From a virus, in the UHGV virus genome UHGV-0208172: a stretch of DNA of 45,009 bases. One strand, written 5' to 3'. The notes below the pieces were generated by a model. It made no database searches. It saw nothing but the letters and a program-made list of their open reading frames with translations, and was not told where the DNA came from. How positions within the stretch are numbered: position 1 is the first letter of the stretch; each line of letters opens with the position of its first letter. This document shows positions 24,253-40,214 of this stretch, in pieces. Both the position numbers and the translations under genes were made by a program.

Positions 24253-24394
24253 CATTAACGCAGCAATCGAAGAAGCAATCTGGCGACGTTACAACGGCAC
24301 TTCTGCCTGGTACAACGCGGTAATATGGTCGCCGTGGTGCAGGACCGCGATAACAAATATCCGAATGCGATGTGGACAACGAGGAATTTCTTAG
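24242..24394 (+). CDS. small hypothetical protein (50 aa), weak
   Basis: Only + frame open between neighbouring ORFs; Trp/Cys-rich, low plausibility. Confidence 0.25.
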   Translation: MFSDINAAIEEAIWRRYNGTSAWYNAVIWSPWCRTAITNIRMRCGQRGIS

Positions 24395-24632
24395 GATGAT
24401 TACCAGCATTCCGAACCTGATTAAAGAATTTGGCACGATGGCGGAGACATGCCGGCAAACCGGTATCAACGAAATGACGATTGCCAAGTACAGTAAAGAC
24501 GTTGATTGTGAGCGCCATGTAATTTATAACAATCGTCTGATGACGCACGTTAAGACAAGCCCGGTGTTATTCACGCGCCGGGGTATCACTAAAACAGAGC
24601 AACGCATTGCTAAAAAGGAGAGCGGGGAATGA
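24372..24632 (+). CDS. putative HTH DNA-binding protein (likely start ATG 24396)
   Basis: HTH-like segment AETCRQTGINEMTIAKYSK. Confidence 0.5.
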   Translation: MDNEEFLRMITSIPNLIKEFGTMAETCRQTGINEMTIAKYSKDVDCERHVIYNNRLMTHVKTSPVLFTRRGITKTEQRIAKKESGE

Positions 24633-24811
24633 TTGAGATTTTGAGAGCTGCAAATGCCGCTGGCGACCTGGTGTTTTGGCTGGCCTTTCTCGGTGTGCTG
24701 ATAAAACAACCGACTTTGTTTAACAGTCTTCCCCGATATCTGTGGTGGCCTATGTTTTTAGGCATGGGTGTATCGGGCGTGGCGGGCATCCTGTTGTGGT
24801 TTTTCAAATGA
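24629..24811 (+). CDS. small membrane protein (two TM helices)
   Basis: 60 aa; ATGA coupling; two hydrophobic helices. Confidence 0.45.
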   Translation: MIEILRAANAAGDLVFWLAFLGVLIKQPTLFNSLPRYLWWPMFLGMGVSGVAGILLWFFK

Positions 24812-24912
24812 GACTACTAATCATACCTAACGCATGGGCTATTGCCGTAGCTAACGACCATTACGGCGGCGATGGTAAAAGAGCACCACGACACGGCCTA
24901 TATAACTGATAC

Positions 24913-24934
24913 AAGCCCTCTACGGAGGGCTTTT
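24913..24934 (+). terminator. rho-independent terminator after early region
   Basis: GCCCTC-TACG-GAGGGC hairpin followed by TTTTCT. Confidence 0.6.
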
Positions 24935-24991
24935 CTGTACATCCCGCCCAATCCCCTTATATAATCCATTTAGACGCGTAGGGCGCGTCTG

Positions 24992-25576
24992 GTGCGCTCT
25001 GATGGTCAGACGCATATGCAAGGGGATTCTATGAAGCTGAAACTTAAGCAGCCATCGCCAGAGGTGGTGCAAGCTGCACATGAAGAAGCTGTTAGTGCAA
25101 ACCGCCGCCGTAGACGACCGCGCGGCAAACAGAGCCTTTATCAATCATCCCGTAATTCCGCCGCGTTGTGGGACCCGGACTATTGCGACGCGTTAATCGA
25201 GTTCTTCGACCGCACGTCATGGGAACTTGTGCCTACGTCTAAGGGTGATAAACGCCCGCTGATTCAGGATAAGCCCCCGTCTCTGGCCCGCTTTGCCTTA
25301 CACATCGGCGTCACTATCCCGATTATTAAGCTGTGGTTGCGAGAGATTCCCGCATTTGCAGAAGCCTGGGAGACCGCACAGGCACTGGAAGAGGCATACT
25401 TCACTGAGACCGGGGCCGCGGGTATATCCGCTACGTTTGCCGCTGCGAAACTGGGCCTAAGCAAAGAAAAACCGGTTGAATCCACCGAAGAAACAGCACC
25501 GACTGAGATTATTTTCAGTGTCGCAGAGCCTGTAGGTAAAATTGTAACAACGAACATGGGCGAGGTAGAGGAATGA
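24992..25576 (+). CDS. terminase small subunit (likely start ATG 25031)
   Basis: HTH-like SLARFALHIGVTIPIIKLWLRE; immediately upstream of and overlapping TerL; RBS AAGGGGA before 25031. Confidence 0.75.
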   Translation: MRSDGQTHMQGDSMKLKLKQPSPEVVQAAHEEAVSANRRRRRPRGKQSLYQSSRNSAALWDPDYCDALIEFFDRTSWELVPTSKGDKRPLIQDKPPSLARFALHIGVTIPIIKLWLREIPAFAEAWETAQALEEAYFTETGAAGISATFAAAKLGLSKEKPVESTEETAPTEIIFSVAEPVGKIVTTNMGEVEE

Positions 25577-26823
25577 GTATTCAGCTATCCGCACCACAGG
25601 CGCTGTTCCTGAACTGCAATAATAAATACAAAGCCTATGTTGGTGGCTTCGGCAGCGGCAAGACATTTGTCGGCTGCCTCGACCTGCTTACGTTCATGCT
25701 CAAGCACCCCGGTACGCGACTCGGATACTTCGGCCCTACGTACCCGGCTATCCGCGACATCTTCTACCCGACATTCGAGGAAGCAGCGAACCTGCTTGGC
25801 CTTGATGTGCTGGTTAAATCCGGCGACAAAGAAGTCGTGGTTACTCGTGGTAAGACGGTTCTCGGGACCGTCATCTGCCGTTCGATGGATAACCCCGGCT
25901 CTATCGTCGGCTTCAAAATCGCTGCTGCAGTCGTCGATGAGTTGGACGTATTGAGCCGCGAGAAGGCTGAGCTGGCGTGGAACAAAATCGTCGCCCGTAT
26001 GCGTCTGGTTATCCCTGGTGTAACTAACCACATCTCCGTTACCACGACGCCAGAAGGGTTCAAGTTCGTCTATGCCAAGTTCAAAGAGAACCCGACTCCG
26101 AGTTACTCGATGGTGCAGGCGTCCACTCACGAGAACGCGCGATTCCTGCCTCCGGATTACATTAGCTCGCTGACTGAGACTTACCCCGCGCAACTGATTA
26201 ACGCGTATCTGAATGGGGAGTTCGTCAACCTGACATCCGGCAGCGTCTACTACGCCTACGACCGCCGTAAGCATCGCAGCAAAGAGACAATTCAACCTGG
26301 CGACACGCTGTACATCGGGCAGGACTTCAACGTTACGAAGAACGCCAGCGCCGTGTATGTGCAACGTAAAGACGGCTGGCACGCAGTAGCAGAACTGAAA
26401 GGCCTGTTCGATACGCCGGACACCGTGCGCGTAATTACTGAGAAGTGGAAGTCGCAAGGCCATCGCATCGTCGTTTACCCTGACGCCAGCGGCAAGAACC
26501 GCAAGACCAACTCGGCATCAATCTCAGATATTGCGTTACTCCAGCAGGCCGGGTTCGATGTTCGCGCTAAATCTGCCAACCCTCCGGTTAAAGACCGTGT
26601 TTTAGCCGTGAATACCGCACTGGAAAAAGGTAAGCTGTGGGTTAACGACCACTTATGCCCCGAGATAGCGAAGACGCTGGAGCAGCAGGCATACGACGAT
26701 AACGGAGAGCCGGCCAAAGACGGCGTTATTGACCATATGGCGGATGCTCTCGGCTATCCTGTAGTTTACGAGATGCCTGTGGTTAAACCCGTAATCAACA
26801 TCCCGGTGACTTTCGCACTTTAA
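25573..26823 (+). CDS. terminase large subunit
   Basis: Walker A GGFGSGKT near N-terminus; 416 aa; followed by portal gene. Confidence 0.85.
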   Translation: MSIQLSAPQALFLNCNNKYKAYVGGFGSGKTFVGCLDLLTFMLKHPGTRLGYFGPTYPAIRDIFYPTFEEAANLLGLDVLVKSGDKEVVVTRGKTVLGTVICRSMDNPGSIVGFKIAAAVVDELDVLSREKAELAWNKIVARMRLVIPGVTNHISVTTTPEGFKFVYAKFKENPTPSYSMVQASTHENARFLPPDYISSLTETYPAQLINAYLNGEFVNLTSGSVYYAYDRRKHRSKETIQPGDTLYIGQDFNVTKNASAVYVQRKDGWHAVAELKGLFDTPDTVRVITEKWKSQGHRIVVYPDASGKNRKTNSASISDIALLQQAGFDVRAKSANPPVKDRVLAVNTALEKGKLWVNDHLCPEIAKTLEQQAYDDNGEPAKDGVIDHMADALGYPVVYEMPVVKPVINIPVTFAL

Positions 26824-26835
26824 GAGGATTATTCA

Positions 26836-28317
26836 ATGTTAACTATGAACGGTCAGAATCAGGGTGTTAAGACAAAACACCGGGAATGGCTGCATCACTT
26901 CGATAAATGGCAGAAGGTACGCCACGCGCTGGAAGGCGACCTTATTCACTATCTCCGTAACGTCGGGAAGAACGAGCCTGACCCGACCTACGCGGCACAG
27001 CGACAGGAAGAATACGAGAACGGCGCTATCTGCTACAACTTCACTAAACGTACCCTGGCTGGGATGGTGGGGTCAGTGATGCGCAAAGACCCTGAGCAGA
27101 TTATCCCGCCTGAGCTTGAGTACCTGTTACGCAATGCCGACGGTTCCGGTGTCGGACTGTGGCAGCACGCGCAGGATACGCTAATGGAGATTGACTCGGT
27201 AGGCCGTGGTGGGTTGCTGGTGGACGCGCCGGAGACTGCTGCGGCAACGGCAGCCGAACAGAACGCGGGATTATTAAACCCGGTCATCGCATTCTACACC
27301 GCAGAGAACATCATCAACTGGCGACTGACACGCATCGGTTCTGTTAACCGGGTGACGATGGTCGTGTTGCGCGAGGTGTGGGAATACTCGGAACCGGGCG
27401 CGGAGTTCGAAACAAAGTTCGGTGAGCAATACCGCGTTCTCGATTTGATTGACGGGCGCTACCGCCAGCGTATTTACCGCTTCGATGCCGAAGGTGGCGC
27501 TCAGGGTGAAGTAAAAGAAATCTTCCCGGAACTTGGCGGACAGTTACGCGGCAAAATCCCGTTCACGTTCATCGGGGCGAGCAACAACGATGCCACCATT
27601 GACGACGCACCTTTGCTACCGTTAGCTGAGCTTAATATCGGGCATTTCCGCAACAGCGCCGATAATGAGGAATCCAGCTTCGTCGTGGGCCAGCCCACTC
27701 TGTTCATCGCCCCTGGTGAGAATATGAGCACGGAACAGTGGACCGAAGCCAACCCTCACGGCGTGCGCATGGGGTCGCGTTCAGGCCACAACATTGGCTA
27801 CGGCGGTAATGCGTTTCTGGTTCAGGCCGGAGAGAACAATCTCGCCAAGCAGAACATGCTGGATAAAGAGAATCAGGCCATTCAGATTGGTGCGCAGCTT
27901 ATTACCCCGACGCAGCAAATCACTGCAGAATCGGCCCGTCTGCAACGTGGCGCTGATACGTCTGTTATGGCGACAATCGCGCGTAATGTAAGCATGGCGT
28001 ATACCGATGCGTTGCGCTGGGTAGCCGCGATGCTAGGGCTGCGTGAAGGCACAGAGATTGAGTTCAAGCTGAATATGGAGTTCTTCCTGCAGCCGATGAC
28101 CGCTCAGGACCGTGCACAGTGGATGGCGGATATTAACGCGGGCCTACTACCAGCTACCGCTTATTATGCTGCGTTGCGTAAGGCGGGGGTAACCGACTGG
28201 ACCGACGAGGACATTCAGAACGCTATTGAGGATGCGCCGCTGCCGTTGGGTGCTGCTACTCCGGTAGCGGGGGAGATTCCGCAGTCGGCGCAGCAACAAG
28301 ACACCGCCCAGCAGTAA
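26836..28317 (+). CDS. portal protein
   Basis: 493-aa ORF immediately after TerL with RBS AAGAGGA; position and size typical. Confidence 0.75.
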   Translation: MLTMNGQNQGVKTKHREWLHHFDKWQKVRHALEGDLIHYLRNVGKNEPDPTYAAQRQEEYENGAICYNFTKRTLAGMVGSVMRKDPEQIIPPELEYLLRNADGSGVGLWQHAQDTLMEIDSVGRGGLLVDAPETAAATAAEQNAGLLNPVIAFYTAENIINWRLTRIGSVNRVTMVVLREVWEYSEPGAEFETKFGEQYRVLDLIDGRYRQRIYRFDAEGGAQGEVKEIFPELGGQLRGKIPFTFIGASNNDATIDDAPLLPLAELNIGHFRNSADNEESSFVVGQPTLFIAPGENMSTEQWTEANPHGVRMGSRSGHNIGYGGNAFLVQAGENNLAKQNMLDKENQAIQIGAQLITPTQQITAESARLQRGADTSVMATIARNVSMAYTDALRWVAAMLGLREGTEIEFKLNMEFFLQPMTAQDRAQWMADINAGLLPATAYYAALRKAGVTDWTDEDIQNAIEDAPLPLGAATPVAGEIPQSAQQQDTAQQ

Positions 28318-28328
28318 GTTCGCATATA

Positions 28329-28348
28329 GCCCCGAAAGGGGCTTTCTT
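28329..28348 (+). terminator. hairpin attenuator / weak terminator after portal gene
   Basis: AGCCCC-GAAA-GGGGCT followed by TTCTTA. Confidence 0.4.
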
Positions 28349-28353
28349 ATAGT

Positions 28354-29430
28354 ATGCTATTAACTTTAGTGCCACAGGATTTAACTATGAGCTTACTTAC
28401 ATCCCTAATCAGCCACCAGATATGGCTGCAACGCACCGCATCCGGTGAAGTGAAAGACCTTGCGCCGTTTCTTCAGGAAATGCGAGACGAAATCAAACGG
28501 CAGGTGCTGTTATTCGGCGACGACGGTCGCAGCACTGCGCGACTGAATAAATTGTTACGCGACCTGGAAGAAGCACTGAGCGGACTTACAGGCGACTGGC
28601 AAACAAAGCTGACAGAAGACCTTAAAGAACTGGCGGCGTATGAAGCGGAGTGGAATGTAAAAACGCTGACGGCTAACGTAGACGCGGAATTTGTTACGCC
28701 CACTGCTGAACAGGTGTGGGCCGCTGCCGAGTTTCAACCATTATCGTTAGGTGACAAGCCAGTCGACTTCACTAAGCTGATGGCAGGCTGGGGTGAAACA
28801 GAAGTCGCGCGCCTTGTAACCGGTGTTAAGATGGGTTTCGTTCAAGGCCTGACAACGCGGCAGATTGTTAAGAATGTCGTAGGCGCTGGCGGGCTGGCGG
28901 ACATCTCTGAGCGTAACGCAGCTACTGTAATCCGCACCGCGCTGTCCCATGTATCTAACGAAGCACGCAACGAGACGTACCGCCAGAACGACGACATCAT
29001 CGAGAAATATGAATGGGTGTCAACGCTGGACAGCCGTACCAGTACGATTTGCAGAGCCAAGGACGGTATGAAGTGGGAAATTGGTAAGGGGCCGATGCCC
29101 CCCGCCCATCCGAACTGTCGAAGTACCACTGCACCCGTAATCAGTTCGGAGTTCGACTTCCTGGATAAAGGCGCAAAACGCGCGGCTAAGGGCGCAGACG
29201 GCGGTACTCAGGTAAGCGCGGACACCACCTATTACGAGTTCCTGAAACAACAACCGGCATGGTTTCAGGATGAAGCACTCGGGCCAACCCGCGGTAAGAT
29301 TTTCCGCAACAGCGGTATATCGCCAGAAGAGTTTCGCGTAATATCTGTAGATGGTTTCGGGAATCCGCTCACGCTTAAGCAGATGGCGGAACTCGATAAA
29401 CGTGTTGCTGATTATCTGAAAGGGGATTAA
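28354..29430 (+). CDS. head morphogenesis protein (Mu F / SPP1 gp7-like by position)
   Basis: 358-aa ORF following portal; alternative start ATG 28387. Confidence 0.6.
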   Translation: MLLTLVPQDLTMSLLTSLISHQIWLQRTASGEVKDLAPFLQEMRDEIKRQVLLFGDDGRSTARLNKLLRDLEEALSGLTGDWQTKLTEDLKELAAYEAEWNVKTLTANVDAEFVTPTAEQVWAAAEFQPLSLGDKPVDFTKLMAGWGETEVARLVTGVKMGFVQGLTTRQIVKNVVGAGGLADISERNAATVIRTALSHVSNEARNETYRQNDDIIEKYEWVSTLDSRTSTICRAKDGMKWEIGKGPMPPAHPNCRSTTAPVISSEFDFLDKGAKRAAKGADGGTQVSADTTYYEFLKQQPAWFQDEALGPTRGKIFRNSGISPEEFRVISVDGFGNPLTLKQMAELDKRVADYLKGD

Positions 29431-29891
29431 TGATGGGCTTTTTCAAAGTAACTGATGTGCCGTCGCGTCGTGTAGTCCAGTACGCCCGCGTGTCTGGCTC
29501 CGGTGAGAACGTGGTATTTATTGAGGACGAAAGTGTACTTGGTACACCGGTAGACGACATGCCGTTTGCGGATAAAACCGGTATCGCGCTACCAGCGGCG
29601 GGCATGCTTTACGAGATTCCGTATCTGGCGGACGCTGGCGACGTATACTTCTCTGTGCAACCGAAAGACGCTGAACTGGCAGACGGCAGCGCAACTATCC
29701 CTGTTGAGGTTAAGGCAGGCAAAGCGCCGTATACTCTGACCTGGTACAAAGACGGTAAGGAAGTGGTAAACGCTCCGGAAGAGGCATTGTCTCTGACGGT
29801 TAATGCAGTTGGCGAATACTTCGTTAAAGTCGCCGATGCTGACGGCGTAGAGGCGGTAAGCAAAGCGGCGAAGGTTACTAAGCCAGAATGA
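29430..29891 (+). CDS. Ig-like domain-containing protein (possible capsid decoration)
   Basis: 153 aa; C-terminal YTLTWYKDGKEV...GEYFVKV I-set-like signature. Confidence 0.55.
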   Translation: MMGFFKVTDVPSRRVVQYARVSGSGENVVFIEDESVLGTPVDDMPFADKTGIALPAAGMLYEIPYLADAGDVYFSVQPKDAELADGSATIPVEVKAGKAPYTLTWYKDGKEVVNAPEEALSLTVNAVGEYFVKVADADGVEAVSKAAKVTKPE

Positions 29892-29893
29892 TA

Positions 29894-29916
29894 AAAGGCC
29901 CCATTATGGGGCCTTA
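29894..29916. terminator. bidirectional terminator (AAGGCCCC-ATTAT-GGGGCCTT)
   Basis: Hairpin between convergent + packaging genes and - moron; same family as 5535 and 37986. Confidence 0.6.
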
Positions 29917-30212
29917 ACTTTCCATACTTCCCTTAGCGCTACGAGTTTATGATTACCAATATCCCTTGATATTATTGAATCTGTAAAACCATTGAACCAT
30001 GATTTCATCCAGTCAGACGTTCTGAAATCGGCGTACAGAATATGTATTGTTTGCGGAGTGTCAACGTCGTAATGTTGGCACACATAAACACATCCGCTGG
30101 CGAATATAACAGCTTTAAACGTATCGTAGTCTTCTGAATCCGGGAACTCGCTGGAGTCCCCAACAAGATACCTGTACGCGTATTTTTTAGTAGTCTTCTT
30201 TCTTTTCCGCAT
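29904..30212 (-). CDS. hypothetical protein (102 aa), moron gene
   Basis: Track ORF; last codons lie within terminator hairpin. Confidence 0.45.
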   Translation of the reverse strand: MRKRKKTTKKYAYRYLVGDSSEFPDSEDYDTFKAVIFASGCVYVCQHYDVDTPQTIHILYADFRTSDWMKSWFNGFTDSIISRDIGNHKLVALREVWKVKAP

Positions 30213-30221
30213 AGTACTTTC

Positions 30222-30461
30222 TCAGAAGTGCCTGACGGGTTGTTTAAACTTCCAGTCACAATCTACCTGTTTAATAGCGCCTTTTGCAACAAGGCTGTCT
30301 ATGAAATCCTGGCCCGAATTCGTCTTGTACCACGTATATCTGTTCCCGACTTTTACTCCAGGTAGGCTGTGATACACAACGGCATCAACCACCATAAAAG
30401 AGACACCGATAGCCCCTTTCTCTGCATATAGTTTTTTGCTCACACTGCTCATGTAGCGCAT
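30222..30461 (-). CDS. hypothetical protein (79 aa), moron gene
   Basis: Track ORF in reverse 3-gene operon. Confidence 0.45.
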   Translation of the reverse strand: MRYMSSVSKKLYAEKGAIGVSFMVVDAVVYHSLPGVKVGNRYTWYKTNSGQDFIDSLVAKGAIKQVDCDWKFKQPVRHF

Positions 30462-30493
30462 CTCCCACGTAGATAGTTAGTAAGGTAAAGCCC

Positions 30494-30679
30494 TTAGGCC
30501 TTACGAATTGTATATCCATACCCGAGGTAGCCGTTTTTCTCTTGCATAGCGGAGGCGCGCAACATAGCAGCATTCTCGCCTTTTACTACAGCGACCACAT
30601 AATCCGTAGAGTCTGGGCCGTTTTCCACAACTTCATACGCCTGTACGTTCTTGGTGGTAAGTTCATATGTGTTAGTCAT
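30494..30679 (-). CDS. hypothetical protein (61 aa), moron gene
   Basis: First gene after class A promoter; RBS AAGGAA. Confidence 0.5.
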   Translation of the reverse strand: MTNTYELTTKNVQAYEVVENGPDSTDYVVAVVKGENAAMLRASAMQEKNGYLGYGYTIRKA

Positions 30680-30713
30680 TTCTAAATTCCTTATCTCTCG
30701 TTTCGATAAGTGA

Positions 30714-30742
30714 ATAGTATCCTATTATGTTGGGGTGTGCAA
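30714..30742 (-). promoter_or_regulatory. sigma70-like early promoter (class A: TTGCAC-N17-TACTAT), reverse orientation
   Basis: Read on - strand: TTGCAC ACCCCAACATAATAGGA TACTAT TCACTTATCGAAACGAGAGATAAGGAA...ATG. Confidence 0.6.
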
Positions 30743-30794
30743 ACTATTTGTTTACGTATTCCATATATTCCGCCTAATTGTAAATGTTGGAATA

Positions 30795-30837
30795 AACTAT
30801 TCGAATAGTTGACTTTTCACTGAAAATATGCTAAGCT
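30795..30837 (+). promoter_or_regulatory. putative rightward promoter (TTGACT-N17-TAAGCT) overlapped by perfect 16-bp palindrome AACTATTCGAATAGTT
   Basis: Palindrome 30795-30810 overlaps the -35 hexamer (30809-30814). Confidence 0.45.
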
Positions 30838-31016
30838 CCACCTGAGCTTGTGAAGTATGAACAAGCGACCGCGGCGCGGGCAGGTAACGGAGCGGGACGT
30901 AAGTCCTGAGTGTAGTTACGCTGACGCGTTCGGAAGGGCCATACTCTATTGCTTGTGTAAAAAGTAACTGGTTTACTGAGATTACGCCGTTTCTATGTTT
31001 AAATGATAAGGACTAG

Positions 31017-31039
31017 CGCCCCGCTTTAAGGCGGGGCTT
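31017..31039 (+). terminator. hairpin terminator/attenuator about 25 nt upstream of the spanin start codon
   Basis: GCCCCGC-TTTAAG-GCGGGGC followed by TTT. Confidence 0.45.
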
Positions 31040-31061
31040 TACTTATCGAGAAAGGAGAAAC

Positions 31062-31448
31062 ATGAATCTTAAAGCAACTGTCGTAGCAGGAGCATGTTCC
31101 ATCATCCTGGTCTACGCATACGGCATCTATCAGTACCGCAGCGGCTGGAGTGAAGGTCGGGCGAATCTCGTTTCGCAGCAACAGCAGAAAGCACTGGCCG
31201 AATTAGCTAAGAAAACACAACGGCAGCAGCAGGATGAATCAAAGGCCGCAGCCGCTGACAACGAAGGCAAGACGAAATCAGAGGTAATCACCCGTGAAGT
31301 CGTTAAGTACATTAAAACGCCTGGCCGCAGCGTGTGCGCTTTTGACCCTGAGCGCGTGCAGCTCAAGTCCCGCGCCGTCGCCAACGCCAATTCCATCCCC
31401 GGATACGACGATGATGCAGCCGCCGTGCAAGCTGGCCCCGCCAAGTAG
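31062..31448 (+). CDS. i-spanin (Rz-like inner membrane spanin)
   Basis: 128 aa; N-terminal TM VVAGACSIILVYAYGIY, Gln/Ala-rich coiled-coil; RBS AAGGAG; overlapped by embedded lipoprotein gene. Confidence 0.75.
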   Translation: MNLKATVVAGACSIILVYAYGIYQYRSGWSEGRANLVSQQQQKALAELAKKTQRQQQDESKAAAADNEGKTKSEVITREVVKYIKTPGRSVCAFDPERVQLKSRAVANANSIPGYDDDAAAVQAGPAK

Positions 31449-31557
31449 CGACGCTGACGAGGACTTAGCTATTGACGTTCAGAATGCCGAATGTGTACGG
31501 CAACTGAGACTGAAAGTGTTCATGTTGCAGGATTACGTGAGGAATATTCTGGAATAG
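31294..31557 (+). CDS. o-spanin (Rz1-like outer membrane lipoprotein)
   Basis: 87 aa; lipobox LTLSAC, Pro-rich; overlaps the i-spanin 3' end in another frame and extends beyond it; GTG start with GAGGT RBS. Confidence 0.7.
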   Translation: MKSLSTLKRLAAACALLTLSACSSSPAPSPTPIPSPDTTMMQPPCKLAPPSSDADEDLAIDVQNAECVRQLRLKVFMLQDYVRNILE

Positions 31558-31585
31558 TTGCCTTGCATGTTGGAATAATTTATTC

Positions 31586-32344
31586 TTGACATGTAAATCC
31601 GGGTGGCCCGGGTTCCAACGTCCAGGGGACATACTGACTATGAATCGTTTTTTACGTTATCCGTTCCAGGAAGAAGCTGGGGCAGAAGATAAATCTGGCG
31701 GCGGTGACGCGCCGAAAATGTTCACCGCTGAAGAAGTTCAGGCGCTGATCGAGAAAGAAGTTGCCGGGCTTAAGGCTAACCAGGAAGCGTTGTTGGCGGA
31801 GAAGAAAGAAGCCGCTCGTAAAGCAAAAGAGGCCGAAGAAGAGCGGCAGCGCGCACATCAGGAGGCTTTAAAAGCCGCTGGTAAGATGGACGAGTTCGAA
31901 AAGACGATTCGTAGCCAGTATGACCCGGTGTTAGCTGAGAAAGATGGTCGCATCTCCAGAATGGCAGAGCGCATCCTCGGCAGCGAACGTAAAGCGGTGT
32001 TAGGCTCTTTCGCTGGTGACTTTATTACCCCGGAAGCAGTGGACATCCTCGCACCGTTCGTTAAGACTGAGTTCGACGGCGATGATGTGGTTACTAAGTT
32101 TGTCGGCGCAGACGGTAACGTAATCACGACTGACCCGGAACAGTTCCGCAAATACCTGCGTGAACATAAAGCGTTTTCGCATTTGATTAAAGCAAATGCA
32201 GCTTCCGGCGGCGGGGCTTCCGGTAGCAAAGGCGGCGGGGCCGCACCAGCGTTTAAAGACATGAGTGAAGCAGAGCGTATCGCTCTGTACGAATCGAACC
32301 CTGCCGAATTTGAACGGCAACTTAAAGCCCTGAGGAAAAAATAA
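31586..32344 (+). CDS. capsid scaffolding protein (likely start ATG 31640)
   Basis: Ala/Glu/Lys-rich, coiled-coil character; immediately upstream of major capsid gene. Confidence 0.65.
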   Translation: MTCKSGWPGFQRPGDILTMNRFLRYPFQEEAGAEDKSGGGDAPKMFTAEEVQALIEKEVAGLKANQEALLAEKKEAARKAKEAEEERQRAHQEALKAAGKMDEFEKTIRSQYDPVLAEKDGRISRMAERILGSERKAVLGSFAGDFITPEAVDILAPFVKTEFDGDDVVTKFVGADGNVITTDPEQFRKYLREHKAFSHLIKANAASGGGASGSKGGGAAPAFKDMSEAERIALYESNPAEFERQLKALRKK

Positions 32345-33393
32345 TGGCAATTACTACTATCGGCGACATCGTAACTGGTAAAGAATCGGTCATTCTGTCT
32401 TACATGACAGAGGACCCGGTAGAGAAAACCGCGTTCTTCCAGTCCGGTATCCTTACCCCGACTCCGTACGCCGCTGCTATCGCAAACGGCCCATCCAACA
32501 AAGCTGTTCTGCCGTACTGGAAAGCGATTGATACCTCTATCGAGCCGAACTACTCGAACGATGTATATCAGGACGTCGCTACCCCGCGTAACGTGCAGAC
32601 CGGTGAGATGATGGCGCGCGTAGCGTACCTGAACGAAGGTTTCGGCCAGGCGGACCTGACTGTAGAACTGACCAGCCAGAACCCGCTGCAATCTGTAGCG
32701 TCCCGTCTGGATAACTTCTGGCAGCGTCAGGCACAACGTCGTCTGATTGCCACTACGCTCGGCCTGTACAACGACAACGTTGCCGCGACCGATGCTTACC
32801 ACGAGCAGAATGACATGGTTGTAGACGTGTCTGCTACTCTTGGCTTCGACTCTGGTGCGTTCATCGATGCTACCCAGACTATGGGTGACGCTCTGATTGG
32901 CAACGGAGGTGAAGTGTTGGGTGCTATCGCGATGCACAGCTTCGTTTATGCGCAGGCTCGTAAGCAGCAGCTTATCGACTTCATCCGTGACGCTGACAAC
33001 AACACCATGTTCGCCACCTACCAGGGCTATCGTGTGATTGTTGACGACAGCATGACCGTAGTCGGTACAGGTGGCGACCGTAAGTTCATCTCCATCATCT
33101 TCGGCAACGGCGCTATCGGTTACGGGGAAGGCAACCCGACCAATCCGCTGGCCTATGAGCGCGAAGAGTCTCGCGGTAACGGTGGCGGTGTAGAAACCCT
33201 GTGGACCCGTAAGACTTGGTTGCTGCACCCGTTTGGCTACAGCTTCACCAGCGCGGTAATCACCGGCAACGGCACCGAGACCGTCGCACGCTCTGCTTCC
33301 TGGCAGGACCTGGCGAACGCCTCCAACTGGAACCGCGTTGTTGAGCGTAAGCATGTACCGATTGCCTTCCTGGTAACTGGTGTCGGTGCTTAA
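32344..33393 (+). CDS. major capsid protein
   Basis: 349 aa; RBS GAGGAAAAAA; follows scaffold; followed by hairpin terminator typical of abundant capsid mRNA. Confidence 0.75.
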   Translation: MAITTIGDIVTGKESVILSYMTEDPVEKTAFFQSGILTPTPYAAAIANGPSNKAVLPYWKAIDTSIEPNYSNDVYQDVATPRNVQTGEMMARVAYLNEGFGQADLTVELTSQNPLQSVASRLDNFWQRQAQRRLIATTLGLYNDNVAATDAYHEQNDMVVDVSATLGFDSGAFIDATQTMGDALIGNGGEVLGAIAMHSFVYAQARKQQLIDFIRDADNNTMFATYQGYRVIVDDSMTVVGTGGDRKFISIIFGNGAIGYGEGNPTNPLAYEREESRGNGGGVETLWTRKTWLLHPFGYSFTSAVITGNGTETVARSASWQDLANASNWNRVVERKHVPIAFLVTGVGA

Positions 33394-33410
33394 GGTTAAG
33401 CTATAATCGA

Positions 33411-33433
33411 GAGGGACTTCGGTCCCTCTTTTC
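33411..33433 (+). terminator. rho-independent terminator/attenuator after major capsid gene
   Basis: GAGGGAC-TTCG-GTCCCTC followed by TTTTC. Confidence 0.6.
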
Positions 33434-33452
33434 ATTTACTAAGAGGTAAATT

Positions 33453-33752
33453 ATGGCTAAGACCGGAAAAGGCTTACCGCGCAGCCTTCAGAACGTTGAC
33501 TTTAGCGACCTAGATATCCCAGTGACGCCTGCTACTACCAGCGTAGTTGGTGGGGTTAAAAAGTCAGCTACTGTAGCTGCACCCGCGGCCATTACTGCCG
33601 CTGCCGGAGTTCAGGCCGCCGCAGACCCGACTAAGGCAGAGTTTGATGCGCTTGTAGCGGAGTACAATAAACTCCGAACCGATGTTACCGCGCTGCGCAC
33701 TACCGTAGCGAACCTGTTAACCGCGCTTAAAAACGCAGGAACTGTAAGCTAA
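33453..33752 (+). CDS. hypothetical structural protein (Ala-rich)
   Basis: 99 aa; RBS AAGAGG; in head module. Confidence 0.5.
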   Translation: MAKTGKGLPRSLQNVDFSDLDIPVTPATTSVVGGVKKSATVAAPAAITAAAGVQAAADPTKAEFDALVAEYNKLRTDVTALRTTVANLLTALKNAGTVS

Positions 33753-33764
33753 AGGAGCTTAAAA

Positions 33765-34115
33765 ATGGTTGATGTAATTAAACGTCGTATTACCGGTGTT
33801 TCTGACGATTCTCCTGCCGACGGTCAGGTTGAAATCGACATGGCGAATATCTCACCAGCATCTTTTTCTACCGCGCTCGCGGCTACCACCGCAGTTACGG
33901 CGGGGCAGACTATGACCCTGACCGTCGCGGTAACCGGCGGTCTGGAGCCATATTCCTACCAGTGGTACAAGAACAACAACGCTATCGCCGGGGCAAACGC
34001 TGCTACCTATGCGAAGGCGTCCACTACTACCGCAGATTCAGGCACGTATAAAGTGGTTGTTCACGATGTGTATGGTAATATTATCTCCAGCAGCACTGTA
34101 GCAACTGTGTCTTAA
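33765..34115 (+). CDS. Ig-like (I-set/Big-like) domain protein
   Basis: 116 aa; YSYQWYKNNNAIAGA...DSGTYKVVV signature. Confidence 0.6.
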   Translation: MVDVIKRRITGVSDDSPADGQVEIDMANISPASFSTALAATTAVTAGQTMTLTVAVTGGLEPYSYQWYKNNNAIAGANAATYAKASTTTADSGTYKVVVHDVYGNIISSSTVATVS

Positions 34116-34151
34116 TACAACGGCCCTTCGGGGCCGTAATAAGGAAAGGTC

Positions 34152-34331
34152 ATGGCAGATAATTATGTAATCCGCGAAAAGTACACCCACGTTGACGTTG
34201 TTGACGGTCAGGTGATGCCTGTTCGCGGTGTGGTAGAGGCTGATGAACTGGTTGCAACCCAACCGGACAACGAAGAAGCGCACAACAACGGCGGTGGTAC
34301 TAAGCGTCGTCGCCGTAAGTCAGAGGAATAA
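34152..34331 (+). CDS. small hypothetical protein (59 aa) ending in a basic tail
   Basis: ATG with AAGGAAAGG RBS; below track cut-off. Confidence 0.4.
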   Translation: MADNYVIREKYTHVDVVDGQVMPVRGVVEADELVATQPDNEEAHNNGGGTKRRRRKSEE

Positions 34332-34334
34332 TTT

Positions 34335-34847
34335 ATGCCGCTAATCGTGGAAACTGGGGCAATCGTCCCGAATGCCGACAGTTACATTAGTCTGGCCGAC
34401 GCCCGCGCGTTAGCGGCTAATTATGGTCTGGAGTTACCTGCTGACGATACCGCTGCCGAAGTAGCTCTGCGCAACGGCGCTACGTATGTCGGGCTTGCAG
34501 AACCCCAGATGTGCGGCCGTCGCGTATCAGCTGAACAGTCTCTGGCGTACCCTCGCACCGGTGTTACGCTGAATGGCTTCCCAGTAGCTAACAATACCAT
34601 TCCGAAGCAGGTGATTCTTGCGCAAGTAATCGCCGCTGTTACATATGGCGCAGGCGCTGATGTCCGGGCTAACTCAGACGGGCGTTCCGTGCAGACTGAG
34701 CGTGTCGAGGGCGCGGTGACAGTGACGTACTTCAACAACGGCAGCAGTGGAGCCACAACCGCGATTACCGCCGCTGACGACGCTTTACGTCCGTTACTGT
34801 GTGGCGGTCTTAACAATGGCTTCTCATTTAACGTGTACCGGGGTTAA
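34335..34847 (+). CDS. putative head-tail connector / head completion protein
   Basis: 170 aa; position between capsid and tail genes. Confidence 0.45.
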   Translation: MPLIVETGAIVPNADSYISLADARALAANYGLELPADDTAAEVALRNGATYVGLAEPQMCGRRVSAEQSLAYPRTGVTLNGFPVANNTIPKQVILAQVIAAVTYGAGADVRANSDGRSVQTERVEGAVTVTYFNNGSSGATTAITAADDALRPLLCGGLNNGFSFNVYRG

Positions 34848-34849
34848 AA

Positions 34850-35464
34850 ATGGCGAAGACTAAAACAGAGATATTTACGCTAATCGGTTCAGAGCTACCT
34901 GATAACACGACCGGGCAAATCACGCCAGCGAAGTTACGTGGGGTGTTAACCCAGATGGCTGACTCACCTATTTACGCCACTCCAGGTGTTAAAGAGGTTG
35001 AAGTTCTCCGTGCTGCGTCGACCGTGACACAAGCGCCCACCGCGGTAGATACAGCGTTGCAGTTAACTTTCGGGGCCGCTCAGGGTAGCGCTTCTGACCC
35101 AGTAATGATTAATGCCGCAGGGCTGGTTACGTTCAACACCGCTGGTAACTACGCCGTTCGCATCAAGTTACAGGCCGGTCGCTCAGGCGCTAGTGGAACG
35201 TCCATCCTGTTGTCCCGCATTCTTCTCAATGGCGCCCAGTACGGTTCTCCGGCCGCCACGAAACTGGTAAGCGCCGATACTACAATCCCGATTGAATCTC
35301 GCGTCGTTATTAACCCCACCGCGGGCCAGACGTTTTCCGTGCAGATTATGCGGGATAGCGCCGGGAGCAACTTTGGTGGCGTATACCCGCAAGTGGCTAC
35401 CGTAACTGCATGGGGTACAGCTCCGTCCGCGCTACTGGTTATCTCTAGACTGGAGGCCGCGTAA
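34850..35464 (+). CDS. hypothetical structural protein
   Basis: 204 aa; in connector region. Confidence 0.45.
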   Translation: MAKTKTEIFTLIGSELPDNTTGQITPAKLRGVLTQMADSPIYATPGVKEVEVLRAASTVTQAPTAVDTALQLTFGAAQGSASDPVMINAAGLVTFNTAGNYAVRIKLQAGRSGASGTSILLSRILLNGAQYGSPAATKLVSADTTIPIESRVVINPTAGQTFSVQIMRDSAGSNFGGVYPQVATVTAWGTAPSALLVISRLEAA

Positions 35465-35823
35465 TGAGCACAGCTTTCAGTAAACGTATGCAAGGCGTGG
35501 GTACGCGCCTGCTAACCAAATTCGGCAGTACGGTATCTCTTGTTCGCGCTGGTTCGAAAGTATGGGATGAAGTTCTCGGTGAGTACGTCTGGTCCGCGGA
35601 TGAAGTGTTGCCGTTGAAGGCCGTTCCTGTTCCGGTAAACGCGGGACTGGTAAACGGTACGACGATTCAGGTGGGTGACATGATTGTTAAAGCGGATTGC
35701 AGTGTCGTTCCGAAGATGGAAGACAAAGTGCAATTCGGCGGCGAACAATGGTCTGTCGTAGCTATAGAGAAGAAGATGGTTAACGATGATGTCGTGGCAT
35801 ACTTTATTCAGGTGAGAAAATGA
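35464..35823 (+). CDS. putative head-tail joining protein
   Basis: 119 aa; ATGA coupling. Confidence 0.45.
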   Translation: MSTAFSKRMQGVGTRLLTKFGSTVSLVRAGSKVWDEVLGEYVWSADEVLPLKAVPVPVNAGLVNGTTIQVGDMIVKADCSVVPKMEDKVQFGGEQWSVVAIEKKMVNDDVVAYFIQVRK

Positions 35824-36215
35824 GTTTCTCGCTTGATGTCTCTAAGTTCGTGGAAAAGGCGAAGAAGAATCCCGAGAAGGTGATGCGTCAGGTGTCTATC
35901 AAGCTGTTTTCCGCTATCATAAAGGCGAGTCCGGTAGATACAGGCCGCTTTCGTATGAACTGGATGGCGTCTGGCGGTACTCCTGCTTCCGGGATTACGG
36001 ACGCTACAGATAAATCAGGAAACACGGCAACCGGAAACGCTACAAGTTTCGTGCTGAAAGCCGCTGACTGGCACGAGTTCACGCTGACAAATAACCTGCC
36101 GTATGCACAACGGCTGGAGTATGGTTGGTCGCAGCAAGCGCCACAAGGATTTGTCAGGGTGAACGTGTCCCGCTTCCAGCAACTCATTAACGAAGAAGCC
36201 AACAAGGTGAAATGA
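35820..36215 (+). CDS. putative neck / tail completion protein
   Basis: 131 aa; overlapping starts within connector module. Confidence 0.45.
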   Translation: MSFSLDVSKFVEKAKKNPEKVMRQVSIKLFSAIIKASPVDTGRFRMNWMASGGTPASGITDATDKSGNTATGNATSFVLKAADWHEFTLTNNLPYAQRLEYGWSQQAPQGFVRVNVSRFQQLINEEANKVK

Positions 36216-36350
36216 TGGACAAGTCACGTCGTCAATACTTCATACTCGCGTGCCATTGGCTGGCCGGAAGTAGGTACGATTTCGTCATGCTACATCTTAA
36301 TTTCGGAAAGTCACGAGTTATGGCGACGAAGGCTCGCGCTGTGGTAGCCT

Positions 36351-36809
36351 ATGACCGTCGTCTTGCCTCAGAAGAAAGTAAATGTGGGGTATATGATGGG
36401 CTACTTTGAGGACTTAACAAAAGCGTTCGATGTGCCGCTGGTAGCCTTCGGAACAACCAACGGCATCAAGGTCGCGCTTGAAAACATCGACGCGCCGACG
36501 TCAACCGATACACCGTATCTGGCAAGTTACATGCTGCTTTCGGATACGGAACAGGCGGATTTGTTCTTCACGGAACAACGCTCTGGTATTTATCAGGTCG
36601 ACATTAACTACGCATCGGTGAAAGGTAGCGCACCAATCAATAAAATGGCAGACTTACTTAACACGGCGTTTAAAGCAGGTAAGTCATTTTCGCGTAACGA
36701 CATCTGCGCCGAGGTTCAATCGGTTAGCCTGGGGCCGCTGATTGTAGAAAACGGATGGACCAAACGACCCTTGTCAATTAACTTTATTGCATTCACCAAG
36801 AGGCTGTGA
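36351..36809 (+). CDS. putative tail terminator / tail tube-associated protein
   Basis: About 140-152 aa; immediately upstream of major tail protein. Confidence 0.45.
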   Translation: MTVVLPQKKVNVGYMMGYFEDLTKAFDVPLVAFGTTNGIKVALENIDAPTSTDTPYLASYMLLSDTEQADLFFTEQRSGIYQVDINYASVKGSAPINKMADLLNTAFKAGKSFSRNDICAEVQSVSLGPLIVENGWTKRPLSINFIAFTKRL

Positions 36810-37981
36810 ATATGGCTACAACTCCTTTTAAGGGCGCGAATACCGCGCAATTCTATGTGGCGGAAGTTACCCCGGGCGTAACACCAAGTAACCCGGTATG
36901 GTCGCCGTTGCGTAACACCGGTGGTGTTCCAGCTGTAACTCGCGATGCGCTGACCTCCAACGAACTGGACGGCAGCCGAGAAACCACATCCATCCGAACC
37001 GGTAACAAGCAGGTTAGCGGGGAGTATGCCATCGAACTTAGCTCCCGTAGCCAGGATGATTTCCTCGCGGGCGCGATGACTTCTACGTGGCAGGATGGGG
37101 TAACCTTATCCGCTGTTGGCATTACGGTAGACCCTGTGGCTAAAACCTTTACCCGCGCCACCGGCAGCTTCATTACTGACGGCGTAGAGGTCGGGGACCT
37201 TCTGTATTTTGACGCTTTAACCGGTGATAACTCTAAGCCGTTCATCGTTACCGCAGTAACTGCTACTGTGGTTACGGGTGCAGGTATTCAACACACCCTG
37301 ACCGCCGAAGGTCCTATCGAGACCGACGGTAAAACTGGCGATAAACTGGAAACCAGTAACGCGTGTAAGACGTTCTCCATCCTGACATGGTTCAAAGGGC
37401 AGTGCGGGAACCCGGACGCGTACATGTTGACCAAAGGCGTGGAAATCTCCGGTTTCACCATCGAGCAGGCCGTAAACGCTATGGTAACCGGCAGCTTCCC
37501 GTTCATCGGTCTGAGCCAGGAAATTCTTACCGCGCCGCCGACAGGTTCCGACTTCTCTCAGGTCACATTCACTGATGAGCCGTTCTCGTCGGTTGATGTG
37601 TCTGTGTTCGACGGGTCCACGCCGTTGCGTTGCGATACTCTCACTATCACAAACGACAACGGTGCTTCTGCGCAGTTCGAACTCGGCAACAGTAGCGTTG
37701 CGTTCGTGGAACGTGGTCGCGCGGCTAACACCTTCTCCATCTCTGGTAAGCTGTACGACATGGCGATGATTCAGAAGTTTATCAACGAACAGCAGGTAGA
37801 GATTAACTCTATTCTGGCGGGGGTAAATGGGGCTATGTCTTTTAGTCTGAAACGTGCCGAACTTACGGCGGTTACACCTGAGATTGGCGGCCCTGAGTCA
37901 ATTACTCAGTCCATTGAAGGTCAGGCTACTGGAAACCAGTACCAGTCGTCTATTGTTATCCAGCGTATCGCCTATGCATAA
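36806..37981 (+). CDS. major tail (tube) protein
   Basis: 391 aa; followed by strong bidirectional terminator; position in tail module. Confidence 0.65.
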   Translation: MNMATTPFKGANTAQFYVAEVTPGVTPSNPVWSPLRNTGGVPAVTRDALTSNELDGSRETTSIRTGNKQVSGEYAIELSSRSQDDFLAGAMTSTWQDGVTLSAVGITVDPVAKTFTRATGSFITDGVEVGDLLYFDALTGDNSKPFIVTAVTATVVTGAGIQHTLTAEGPIETDGKTGDKLETSNACKTFSILTWFKGQCGNPDAYMLTKGVEISGFTIEQAVNAMVTGSFPFIGLSQEILTAPPTGSDFSQVTFTDEPFSSVDVSVFDGSTPLRCDTLTITNDNGASAQFELGNSSVAFVERGRAANTFSISGKLYDMAMIQKFINEQQVEINSILAGVNGAMSFSLKRAELTAVTPEIGGPESITQSIEGQATGNQYQSSIVIQRIAYA

Positions 37982-37985
37982 AACT

Positions 37986-38008
37986 AAGGCCCCGTTTGGG
38001 GCCTTTTT
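37986..38008. terminator. bidirectional rho-independent terminator (AAGGCCCC-GTTT-GGGGCCTT + T5)
   Basis: Hairpin plus TTTTT; separates major tail gene from convergent reverse cassette. Confidence 0.7.
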
Positions 38009-38009
38009 C

Positions 38010-40176: not shown

Positions 40177-40214
40177 GCTTACGTCCTCGTGTTTAGGATT
40201 TGTCCTATACTAGC

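Follow-up and report, generated by a model that had tools for sequence, protein, structure and literature searches.

The put RNA of phage HK022 renders RNA polymerase resistant to terminators through the zinc-binding domain of the beta' subunit. This RNA is about 70 nucleotides (nt) long and is composed of two stems, with putL lying just downstream of the promoter PL (PMC9378689). In this study, we examined a locus with a comparable layout in the UHGV virus genome UHGV-0208172, a stretch of 45,009 nt (hereafter called the window) that corresponds to a complete or near-complete genome of a Kagunavirus (subfamily Guernseyvirinae): namely, a sigma70-type promoter, a long leader and a GC-rich hairpin, which are placed in this order immediately 5' of the spanin, scaffold and capsid genes. 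Phages of the Guernseyvirinae (Kagunavirus and Jerseyvirus) rank with those most frequently isolated for therapy and biocontrol against Escherichia coli and Salmonella. A preliminary description made from the window alone likened the locus to the pR'-tR' arrangement of lambda, where a short terminated transcript is extended into the late genes by an antiterminator, and named a riboregulatory leader or a small RNA as the alternative.

Several other leader RNAs also bear comparison with this locus. A conserved RNA domain followed by variable downstream hairpins is typical of leader-type regulators such as riboswitches and attenuators. Also, 5'-terminal stem-loops stabilise messenger RNAs (mRNAs) of E. 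coli, for example in the 5' untranslated region (UTR) of ompA, and a long stem at the ribosome-binding site (RBS) couples processing to translation in the leader of lambda N. The locus examined here shares with riboswitch and attenuator leaders, and with those of the LoaP or EAR type, a conserved 5' domain, differing hairpins of which one pairs with the RBS, and the position in the 5' leader of a long operon; unlike them, it has no match in Rfam, its domain and hairpin are ~45-90 nt apart, and no alternative pairing is backed by covariation. With the ompA-type stabilisers it would have in common a hairpin at the extreme 5' end (2 nt from the start predicted from promoter geometry), and it shares with the leaders of T7 and lambda N that are processed by ribonuclease (RNase) III a long interrupted stem of double-stranded RNA (dsRNA) adjoining or including the RBS. 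The conservation of unpaired bases and the reuse of the module nonetheless exceed the needs of a stabiliser.

As in HK022 put, the promoter-proximal nascent RNA would form two stem-loops with bulges ahead of terminators and long operons transcribed by the host RNA polymerase; indeed, a first hairpin (P1) is followed by GA in one type of the leader (Kaguna type) or A in the other (Jersey type) and then by an arm of three helices (P2-P4); in put, about one unpaired base lies between the two stem-loops. The module is possible in two operons per genome, and no dedicated antiterminator protein is evident. In contrast to put, the domain is larger (~90 nt, with an arm of 65 nt), belongs to virulent siphoviruses, and is followed by conserved single-stranded motifs and a hairpin that pairs with the RBS. 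Lambda pR'-qut-tR' resembles the locus in its constitutive-looking promoter, its non-coding transcript of ~200 nt, its hairpin 5' of lysis and head genes and a -10-like hexamer near the predicted start, whereas in the present case no Q gene was found in the annotations of Bas70 and SETP7 or with HK022 Q as query against the window, the terminator is poor with a paired tail, and the fold covaries. As for the nut sites, the P4 loop of the leader is, unlike boxB, not conserved, and boxA (GCTCTTTAACAA) has no match in the leader at up to three mismatches (41 matches in the whole window as compared with 38.9 expected). The structured RNA of the leader is a new motif, but its general kind, the promoter-proximal leader of phages, is familiar; it is a defined element at the entry of the capsid operon in ~500 sequenced genomes, with covarying helices and conserved unpaired motifs, and absent from Rfam.

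Conservation and coding potential of the leader

All of the evidence presented here is comparative. We compared 38 Kaguna-type loci from IMG/VR and 10 Jersey-type loci, the locus counts below being given out of 47; two phage records in the 60-80% identity band of the BLAST search are outside the compared set. In BLAST, the stretch 30680-31061 matched 233 records of Escherichia and Salmonella phages with 90-99% identity, and the Jersey-type leader matched 269 records; the two types together cover essentially the whole subfamily. Indeed, the arrangement of promoter, long leader and GC hairpin 5' of the spanin, scaffold and capsid genes, which the preliminary description had noted in the window, is kept in ~500 Guernseyvirinae records. 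The gap between the promoter and the spanin gene is 224 nt, and the leader ends exactly at the spanin AUG in 47/47 loci. When examined in 50-nt segments across 30800-31050 among the 38 Kaguna-type loci, the leader shows 96-98% identity, the highest conservation in its neighbourhood, whereas the genes for spanin, scaffold and capsid mostly reach 85-93%. The Jersey-type leader (10 loci) is a diverged version that is ~28 nt shorter, in which the helices are kept by compensatory changes.

This conservation might be explained by a gene for a small protein, which would have 36 amino acids (aa) in Kaguna-type and 39 aa in Jersey-type phages, with AFGRAxLYC in common. A 36-aa open reading frame (ORF) is indeed present inside the leader (30857-30967, + strand); it is open in 29 of the 47 loci and is registered as "hypothetical protein" in several GenBank relatives. 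In the Jersey clade, furthermore, an ORF initiated by GTG runs in the same frame over the conserved TTCGGAAGGGCC...CTATTGC. The reading frame itself is, however, poorly kept: the 36-aa ORF is truncated or frameshifted in six relatives and lacks its ATG in 12 loci, while the conserved segment is read in another frame in the locus L018 and is preceded by a stop in the early-operon copies L325 and L326 (see below), all of which keep the nucleotides. Substitutions in the 36-aa ORF are distributed as 7/4/3 over the codon positions (3 synonymous versus 11 non-synonymous) and those in the Jersey ORF as 4/6/6, with no excess at the third position. No convincing Shine-Dalgarno (SD) sequence was found for the ATG, which lies ~13 nt from the 5' end inside the P1 loop, and what is conserved is compensatory base-pair changes. 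Given the frameshifts, the lost starts and the lack of a codon-position bias, the conservation operates at the level of RNA or DNA; the ORF is hence judged to be non-coding, what many records list within the leader as a "hypothetical protein" probably does not correspond to a gene, and a small protein as the reason for the conservation is hardly credible. The preliminary description had called the leader untranslated; it is not free of ORFs, but the one that it contains has no coding signature.

Among the 4227 families of Rfam 15, none was hit at the gathering score in the whole window, and neither of the two domains of the leader has a family; even when the region was searched at expectation values (E) up to 10, the best sub-threshold match reached 16 bits against a threshold of 42. 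In Rfam and the literature searched, we found no description of the leader RNA but only automated predictions of a promoter and a terminator together with the "hypothetical protein" call. A reading of the leader as an RNA similar to transfer RNA or transfer-messenger RNA was discarded, with no Rfam match. We also rejected a likeness to repeats of the CRISPR (clustered regularly interspaced short palindromic repeats) systems, since CCCCGC/GCGGGG and the type I-E repeat stem are alike over 6 base pairs (bp) only and differ in their flanks.

Structure of the 5' domain

The covariance model of the 5' domain, R1, was built from 12 Kaguna-type sequences with the P1-P4 structure and was used to align the Jersey-type and paralogous copies. 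In this model, P1 (GCUUGU/ACAAGC; 30846-51 with 30861-66, spanning 30846-30866 on the + strand) is located ~2 nt from the predicted 5' end and is followed by the arm of 65 nt (30869-30933, + strand), which is composed of P2 (30869-77 with 30926-33), P3 (30881-88 with 30915-23) and P4 (30893-98 with 30903-08, with a GUAA loop). Over 28 distinct sequences, 95.2% of the cells in P1-P4 are paired, as compared with 84.5% in shuffles and 29-41% with shifted partners; double changes are observed in 16 of the 28 pairs, and none of 500 shuffles reaches any of these measures. An earlier count of the pairs in P1-P4 used 18 sequences.

The individual helices vary in ways that retain pairing. P1 is 99% paired with four of its six pairs changed on both sides, and the Jersey clade has a different hairpin, ACGCU-UUC-AGCGU, in its place. 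One pair of P2 occurs in three states (C-G, U-A and A-U), and comparison of the clades by hand gives P4 as GGGAC/GUCC in most Kaguna copies and GGUGC/GCAC in some of them, and for the Jersey type as GGGCG/CGCCC. The loop at the tip of P4 varies freely (GUAA, GUUAA, UCACAA, AUUA and CUCG). Nearly invariant are the internal loops, with GNA(G/A)C on one strand of the arm and AG(U/C)GUA on the other, ACCGCG, and GGAAGGGCC-N5-CUAUUG; the last of these is a mostly unpaired core (30932-30951, + strand) that comes after the arm in every copy and is identical or nearly identical among the Kaguna late, Jersey late and early-locus copies.

The core is followed by a variable middle region (30952-30988, + strand), the length and sequence of which differ by clade and from which the locus L027 lacks 7 nt. 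A small putative hairpin can be drawn there (AGUAA, 30963-67, with UUACU, 30973-77), where the loop positions vary and the stem changes only by wobble pairs, and AGAUUACGCCG at 30978-88 is conserved. Two other pairings were considered and put aside. The pairing GCGGCG/CGCCGU of the minimum-energy fold is compatible with the sequences but, unlike the local P2, has no double changes, and a long-range pairing proposed by RNAalifold between the 5' end and 31044-31058 competes with P1 and with the stems S1-S3 (31042-31061; see below), both of which are better supported.

The 3' domain and the GC-rich hairpin

The 3' domain (30989-31061, + strand; model R2) is an interrupted hairpin of 26 bp, in which S1 (GUUUCU/AGAAAC; 30989-94 with 31056-61) ends one base before the AUG and is stacked up by S2 (30998-31000 with 31050-52), S3 (UGAUAAG/CUUAUCG; 31004-10 with 31042-48), S4 (31014-16 with 31039-41) and the apical GC stem S5 (31018-24 with 31031-37). 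In the R2 alignment, 98% of the cells are paired as compared with 48-56% in shifted controls, and double changes are found in 6 of the 26 pairs, located in the lower stems S1 (U-A to A-U) and S3 (G-C to U-A and A-U to C-G). The SD sequence of the spanin gene, AAGGAG, is at 31052-57 and its ATG at 31062; the base of the hairpin therefore takes in the last two SD bases and the whole spacer between SD and AUG. With a predicted energy of -27.4 kcal/mol, SD positions 4-5 and the spacer have an unpaired probability of 0.02 or less in the predicted ensemble. Compared across related phages, therefore, the leader is supported as having a defined fold in both its 5' domain (16/28 pairs doubly changed) and its 3' domain (6/26).

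The apex of this hairpin, the stem-loop 31018-31037 (GCCCCGCTTTAAGGCGGGGC, then TTTACTTATC), is what the preliminary description had taken for a terminator, that is, a GC-rich hairpin plus TTT just before the spanin RBS. The stem-loop itself is well founded. It has 8 pairs, 7 of which are G-C, and a predicted energy of -15.8 kcal/mol similar to those of the other terminator-like stems in the window, and it occurs in compensatory variants, namely GCCCUGC/GCAGGGC in the Kaguna type and GCCCGGC/GCCGGGC or GCCCGAC/GUCGGGC in the Jersey type. Terminator-like patterns in the region number 5 versus 3.4 expected, which is not above chance, and the reality of the hairpin hence rests on its conservation and covariation. 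Its role as a terminator, however, was not supported, because the stem-loop is the apex of a longer stem and the supposed U-tract is base-paired. Kaguna-type leaders have UUUACUUAUC as the tail after the GC stem and Jersey-type leaders have UUAGCGUAUA, both being paired with upstream bases; also, the bases after the stem (CUUUACUUAUC in Kaguna and CUUAGCGUAUA in Jersey) keep the pairing but not the U-richness, with three U in the Kaguna type and two in the Jersey type and with substitutions that preserve the pairing with the 5' flank. Since S1-S3 can form only after the polymerase has passed any point of termination, selection acts on the read-through transcript, and the Jersey tail UUAGCGUAUA, which is not U-rich and yet paired, indicates selection on dsRNA reaching the RBS but not on a terminator. 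Partial termination might still occur in the Kaguna-type phages. As a covarying hairpin of 26 bp, even if interrupted, the 3' domain also has the approximately two turns of largely continuous dsRNA that RNase III would require.

Promoter of the leader

The promoter TTGACT-N17-TAAGCT of the preliminary description was confirmed at 30809-30837 (+ strand). It is an extended -10 promoter of the sigma70 type, with the -35 element TTGACT at 30809-30814, a 17-bp spacer, TG at 30829-30830 (-15/-14) and the -10 element TAAGCT at 30832-30837; the 17-bp spacing and the TG are invariant in 47/47 loci. The -35 element is TTGACT in 37, TAGACT in 7, TAGATT in 2 and TCGACT in 1 of these loci, and the -10 element is TAAGCT in 37 and TACGCT in 10. 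A simple consensus scanner did not call the promoter, TAAGCT having 3/6 matches to the -10 consensus TATAAT. Nonetheless, a predicted host promoter is annotated at the same site in OM272052, and software predictions of this promoter and of the hairpin are already part of the annotation of phage fBC-Eco01. From the geometry of the promoter only, we infer that transcription starts near 30844.

Upstream of the promoter, the left side of the intergenic region is occupied by leftward accessory genes, the first of which starts at 30679. These leftward genes (29904-30679) are present in 1 of the 38 related Kaguna-type loci; in the relatives without them, a rightward gene with a strong terminator is located directly before the conserved promoter block, which means that the transcription unit begins here. 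The segment 29904-30679 corresponds to a hypervariable "moron" slot between a Hoc-like head gene and the late promoter, and a bidirectional terminator (29895-29915) flanks the slot.

We also noticed that the -10 hexamer is nearly repeated at the predicted start (30832-30848). Kaguna-type loci have TAAGCT-N5-TGAGCT there, and Jersey-type loci have TACGCT-N3-TACGCT (e.g., 5728-5745 of the locus L322). In the Kaguna type, the repeat forms a DNA palindrome, AAGCTC-N5-GAGCTT. The repeated hexamer might represent two -10 elements in tandem, or else act as a pause element or operator.

Copies of the module in the early operon

Some Kagunaviruses were found, by a metagenome scan and R1, to have a second copy of the promoter and the 5' domain in their early rightward operon, beside an excisionase-like gene with a helix-turn-helix. 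A full-length early copy is present in at least 20 isolate genomes, and there are further variants with ~82% identity (e.g., Golestan, EcoPhCCP1, SHAK7858 and GZMU_E2010). Common to the copies are the promoter between -35 and +1, P1-P4, in which P3 and P4 occur in new compensatory variants, GGAAGGGCC...CUAUUG, and the motif ACUGA-N9-GUUUCUAU. The early copies then enter other long GC-rich hairpins, which are either GAGAGUAC...GGGGUGGGC-UAAC-GCCCACCC...GUACUCUUUU or GGUGCC-UUCG-GGCACC with an interrupted U-rich tail, and the early locus continues after the hairpin with a separate promoter cassette, TTGCAC-N17-TACTAT, and then the first gene. Taken over all loci, the same 5' domain precedes long GC hairpins of three kinds, of which two are early and one is late; indeed, an identical 100-nt 5' domain is found in the late copy of the locus L018 and in the early copy of L328. 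Because the identical domain is reused at late and early loci with differing hairpins, the 5' domain is a portable RNA module linked to its promoter, while the downstream hairpin is exchangeable. For engineering, the promoter and the 5' domain accordingly offer themselves as one portable unit. The window, Bas70 and SETP7 have a single copy each, which is the late one.

The metagenome scan mostly added identical copies of the Kaguna type. When R1 was applied to 92 unrelated viral contigs, none was accepted, and a scan of genomic contigs returned two chance hits only (a planctomycete and Saccharopolyspora), which R1 rejected. A more distant third RNA clade suggested by loose DNA patterns in IMG/VR was also dismissed, these being chance hits that include 60-nt matches in a conserved coding gene, probably that of terminase.

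The early locus of the window itself (17972-18396) has a promoter, TTGACA-N17-TAAGGT, and then a different, ORF-less leader of ~300-400 nt, with a minimum free energy of -110.8 kcal/mol as compared with -77.6 ± 4.7 in shuffles (z = -7.1). This leader is followed by the same distal long GC hairpin (18236-18292) and the second-promoter cassette; in other Kagunaviruses, the 5' part of the early leader is replaced by the late-type promoter and the 5' RNA domain. In the early leaders of Golestan (L325, ~950-985) and EcoPhCCP1 (L326, ~955-975), a (CTCA)n microsatellite of variable length is located just 5' of the GGTGCC-TTCG-GGCACC hairpin. Pairing in trans between CCCTTCC of the early leader (18125-18131) and GGAAGGG of the late one (30932-30938) was considered as well, but the duplex, while a perfect complement, is not significant (9/60 shuffles were as good) and is probably due to chance.

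Possible functions of the leader

We tentatively favour the locus as a promoter with a cis-acting structured leader RNA of the spanin-scaffold-capsid unit, in which the 5' domain would serve as a sensor or effector and the hairpin as an exchangeable platform gating the spanin RBS. This corresponds to the riboregulatory alternative of the preliminary description, which we prefer because of the strong covariation for a defined fold. The host sigma70 RNA polymerase would start near 30844, downstream of operator-like inverted repeats that lie upstream and over the -35 element. The first ~95 nt of the transcript are predicted to fold into P1 and the 65-nt P2-P3-P4 arm, followed by the single-stranded GGAAGGGCC...CUAUUG, and this 5' domain would be the part that senses or acts by binding RNA polymerase, a protein or a ligand. 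The last 73 nt may then function as an expression platform: the GC stem-loop (31018-31037) with its short U run would stop or pause some polymerases, and in the transcript read through, the stem-loop would extend to the 26-bp hairpin, which pairs the last two SD bases and the spacer before the AUG of the inner-membrane spanin (i-spanin). The 26-bp hairpin would limit or gate the translation of the spanin and may also be a site of processing or stability. The leader probably sets the amount of transcription and translation that enters the genes for spanin, scaffold and capsid. Should it sense a factor, the leader would be a new riboregulator of phages.

Several results weigh against this reading. 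In the early copies, a hairpin and a second promoter stand between the module and the genes, a layout that would fit a stand-alone RNA equally well. The single-sequence fold energy of the leader is unremarkable (z = -1.57), and the covariation comes from few independent lineages, i.e., two clades and a handful of variants and paralogues, in alignments fitted to the models. A mutually exclusive antiterminator pairing with the support of covariation was not found in the leader; a 17-nt complementarity (30891-30907 with 31009-31025) was rejected as such a pairing because it is broken without compensation in the P4 variants L018 and L027, and the early copies have a C-rich segment that is complementary to the G-rich arm of the hairpin, but short. 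Also, the Jersey hairpin has no U-tract, and attenuation of transcription cannot be the mechanism shared by all members. The start site, termination and processing are predictions, and published transcriptomics of a Guernseyvirinae phage gives gene-level timing but no transcript ends, placing the capsid gene in the middle class (PMC12645636).

A different possibility is that the 5' domain acts as a put-like, factor-independent RNA for processive antitermination, which would stay as nascent RNA on the polymerase and make it ignore the leader hairpin and later terminators such as that after the capsid gene. Antitermination is attractive in that terminator-like hairpins follow the module at the early and the late locus alike and the late operon has terminators inside it, one of which, at 33409-33430, abuts the next gene; more terminator-like hairpins lie at 37986 and 41129. 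Consistent with this are also the two stem-loops 1-2 nt apart immediately after the promoter, the presence of the module in two operons of some genomes as with putL and putR, the conserved unpaired bases of the internal loops, the start of the next gene ~22 nt past the capsid terminator with no room for a promoter, and the absence of any annotated or detectable antiterminator protein. The leader hairpins are, however, weak terminators at best and leave little to antiterminate, most genomes including the window have one copy only, and the arm of ~65 nt contrasts with the 37 nt of put stem II. Homology to put was rejected: R1 found no match at E up to 10 in HK022 24000-40751, which includes the PL/PR region, and the score of a local alignment to putL was equalled by 92 of 1000 shuffles and is thus not significant. 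We regard a put-like action as doubtful, and equally doubtful is the more specific proposal that the 5' domain represents a second, unrelated family of self-sufficient antiterminator RNA in virulent Guernseyvirinae, which would ride as nascent RNA on the polymerase of E. coli or Salmonella and carry it past the hairpin of the leader and the internal terminators of the late operon (19 kb), with a like role in the early operon of some phages. Should the leader control elongation, only one other kind of RNA-only antiterminator would be known. Alternatively, a stable non-coding RNA of ~200 nt, released by termination at or cleavage in the long hairpin, might bind a protein or an RNA of the host or the phage and so act in trans, its position at the late genes being secondary. 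The early layout of promoter, ~230-nt RNA, long GC hairpin and separate promoter cassette looks like an independent RNA gene; the extreme sequence conservation and a 26-bp hairpin long enough for RNase III would agree with this, as would another ORF-less and very strongly folded RNA at the early locus of the window. Nonetheless, the late copy ends exactly at the spanin AUG in every locus, the covariation of the basal helix with the RBS spacer is a cis feature, the Jersey hairpin lacks the U-tract, and no complementarity to a target was found, including the non-significant duplex of the late and early leaders; a role in trans thus appears unlikely.

Somewhat less probable still is a passive 5' UTR, whose 5'-terminal hairpin and dense structure would stabilise the capsid mRNA against RNase E and keep Rho off with no regulatory decision. 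Such a role could account for the position of P1, which in the two clades alike begins ~2 nt past the predicted 5' end although the sequences are unrelated, and the operon does encode the most abundant virion proteins, but it leaves unexplained the near-invariant loops, internal loops and single-stranded motifs across clades and paralogues, the compensatory upkeep of the RBS pairing, and the early copies, where a hairpin and a second promoter intervene before the genes. As for a lambda-like late switch, in which a short transcript of the pR' type ends at a tR'-like terminator until a Q-type protein loads at the promoter, the promoter, the ~195-nt transcript and the hairpin before lysis and head genes do resemble lambda pR'-6S-tR', and a -10-like hexamer is repeated at the start site. 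That repeat, however, spans the predicted start itself but not the early transcribed region (+1 to +6 or later), and the terminator is weak in the Kaguna type and, in the Jersey type, has no U-tract. Among the 83 coding sequences of Bas70 and the 67 of SETP7, none is annotated as Q-like, and the best hit of HK022 Q in tblastn against the window has E of 0.84, the search by sequence being confined to the lambda/HK022 Q family. Furthermore, the leader has a conserved fold, whereas none is known to be needed by the 6S RNA of lambda. The defining parts of the lambda arrangement, i.e., a Q homologue and an efficient intrinsic terminator, were therefore not found, and we consider the analogy drawn in the preliminary description to be very improbable.

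Operator-like DNA motifs

The perfect 16-bp palindrome AACTATTCGAATAGTT (30795-30810), which the preliminary description had noticed at the -35 element, does overlap it and is made of AATAG/CTATT half-sites as in a promoter motif found genome-wide (see below). It occurs as a single exact copy in the window, with two matches at up to three mismatches as compared with 0.13 expected. The palindrome is nonetheless degenerate in L027 and non-palindromic in the Jersey clade and is hence specific to the Kaguna type, not the element conserved in both clades. What both clades keep is, for example, ATTCCAGTTATTCC, which covers two direct TATTCC half-sites (reverse complement GGAATA) 9 bp apart at 30757-30771, approximately -87 to -73 from the predicted start. 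Another inverted repeat, GGAATA-AAC-TATTC (30789-30802), is centred near -49 and is conserved in the Jersey clade as GGAATACTTTATTC. GAATA-N3-TATTC has just two occurrences in the 45 kb, at 30790 and 31573, and GGAAT has its densest cluster of the window at the late promoter (4 in 120 nt versus 0.19 expected), the two densest clusters in the genome being this region and 31541-31611.

The second motif, the inverted repeat AATAG-N4-CTATT, is present in 13 copies in the window at up to one mismatch, as compared with 0.93 expected; the exact copies are at 8176, 11972, 14710, 18348, 19438, 19754, 30713 and 40436 and those with one mismatch at 2518, 14754, 22944, 28348 and 30804. The last of these, AATAG-TTGA-CTTTT (30804-30817), lies over the -35 element of the late promoter, while most copies lie over the spacer and the -10 element of strong promoters, TTGACA-N17-TATAGT (minus strand) and TTGCAC-N17-TACTAT. 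The Jersey phage SETP7 also has nine copies versus 1.5 expected, with a one-mismatch copy over its late -35 element. This motif was reported for fBC-Eco01 as a "phage promoter" by the motif finder PHIRE (PMC9825357). GGAATA-N3-TATTC and AATAG-N4-CTATT look like candidate operators of one phage regulator that would be shared by early and late promoters, and they may thus point to a regulator linking the two.

The other GGAATA cluster (31541-31611) contains the palindrome GAATA-ATT-TATTC at 31573-85 and, ahead of the scaffold RBS, a hairpin CCGGG-NGG-CCCGG at 31599-611. The preliminary description had recognised here a degenerate copy of the upstream element with a TTGACA (31567-31591). A copy is present, as ATGTTGGAATAA recurs at 31567-31578 and the invariant GAATA-N3-TATTC is shared, although the 12-mer ATGTTGGAATAA alone is not significant (three matches at up to two mismatches versus 3.3 expected). 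As a second promoter, in contrast, it was rejected: the TTGACA at 31586-31591 is not conserved, being TTGTTA in the Jersey-type and some Kaguna-type phages, and no -10 element is found downstream. The junction of the outer-membrane spanin (o-spanin) and scaffold genes (31550-31650) shows a conservation of 97-98% in the Kaguna type and 86-91% in the Jersey type, and the CCGGG-NGG-CCCGG hairpin, which has a freely variable loop, lies ~30 nt ahead of the scaffold start. The region 31541-31611 may be a second operator and an element for the translation or stability of the scaffold.

Neighbouring genes and other features

The first gene after the leader, as annotated in relatives, encodes the Rz-like i-spanin (31062-31448, + strand), with which the o-spanin gene (31294-31557, + strand) overlaps; the scaffold gene starts at 31641 (+ strand), and the major capsid gene follows at 32344-33393 (+ strand).

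A cassette composed of a promoter and a 5' UTR, TTGCACACCCCAACATAATAGGATACTATTCACTTA, is found in three copies in the window, at 18331-18366 (+ strand), 30742-30707 (- strand) and 40465-40430 (- strand). Each copy is located ~25-35 nt 5' of a gene start, and the leftward accessory genes, which diverge from the late promoter, are driven by one of these copies.

The major capsid gene is immediately followed by a terminator-like hairpin, GAGAGGGACTTCGGTCCCTCTT, and TTCATTT (33409-33430). The next gene starts at 33453, ~22 nt further on, which leaves no room for a promoter between them; expression of the head and tail genes downstream must, therefore, depend on read-through of this hairpin.

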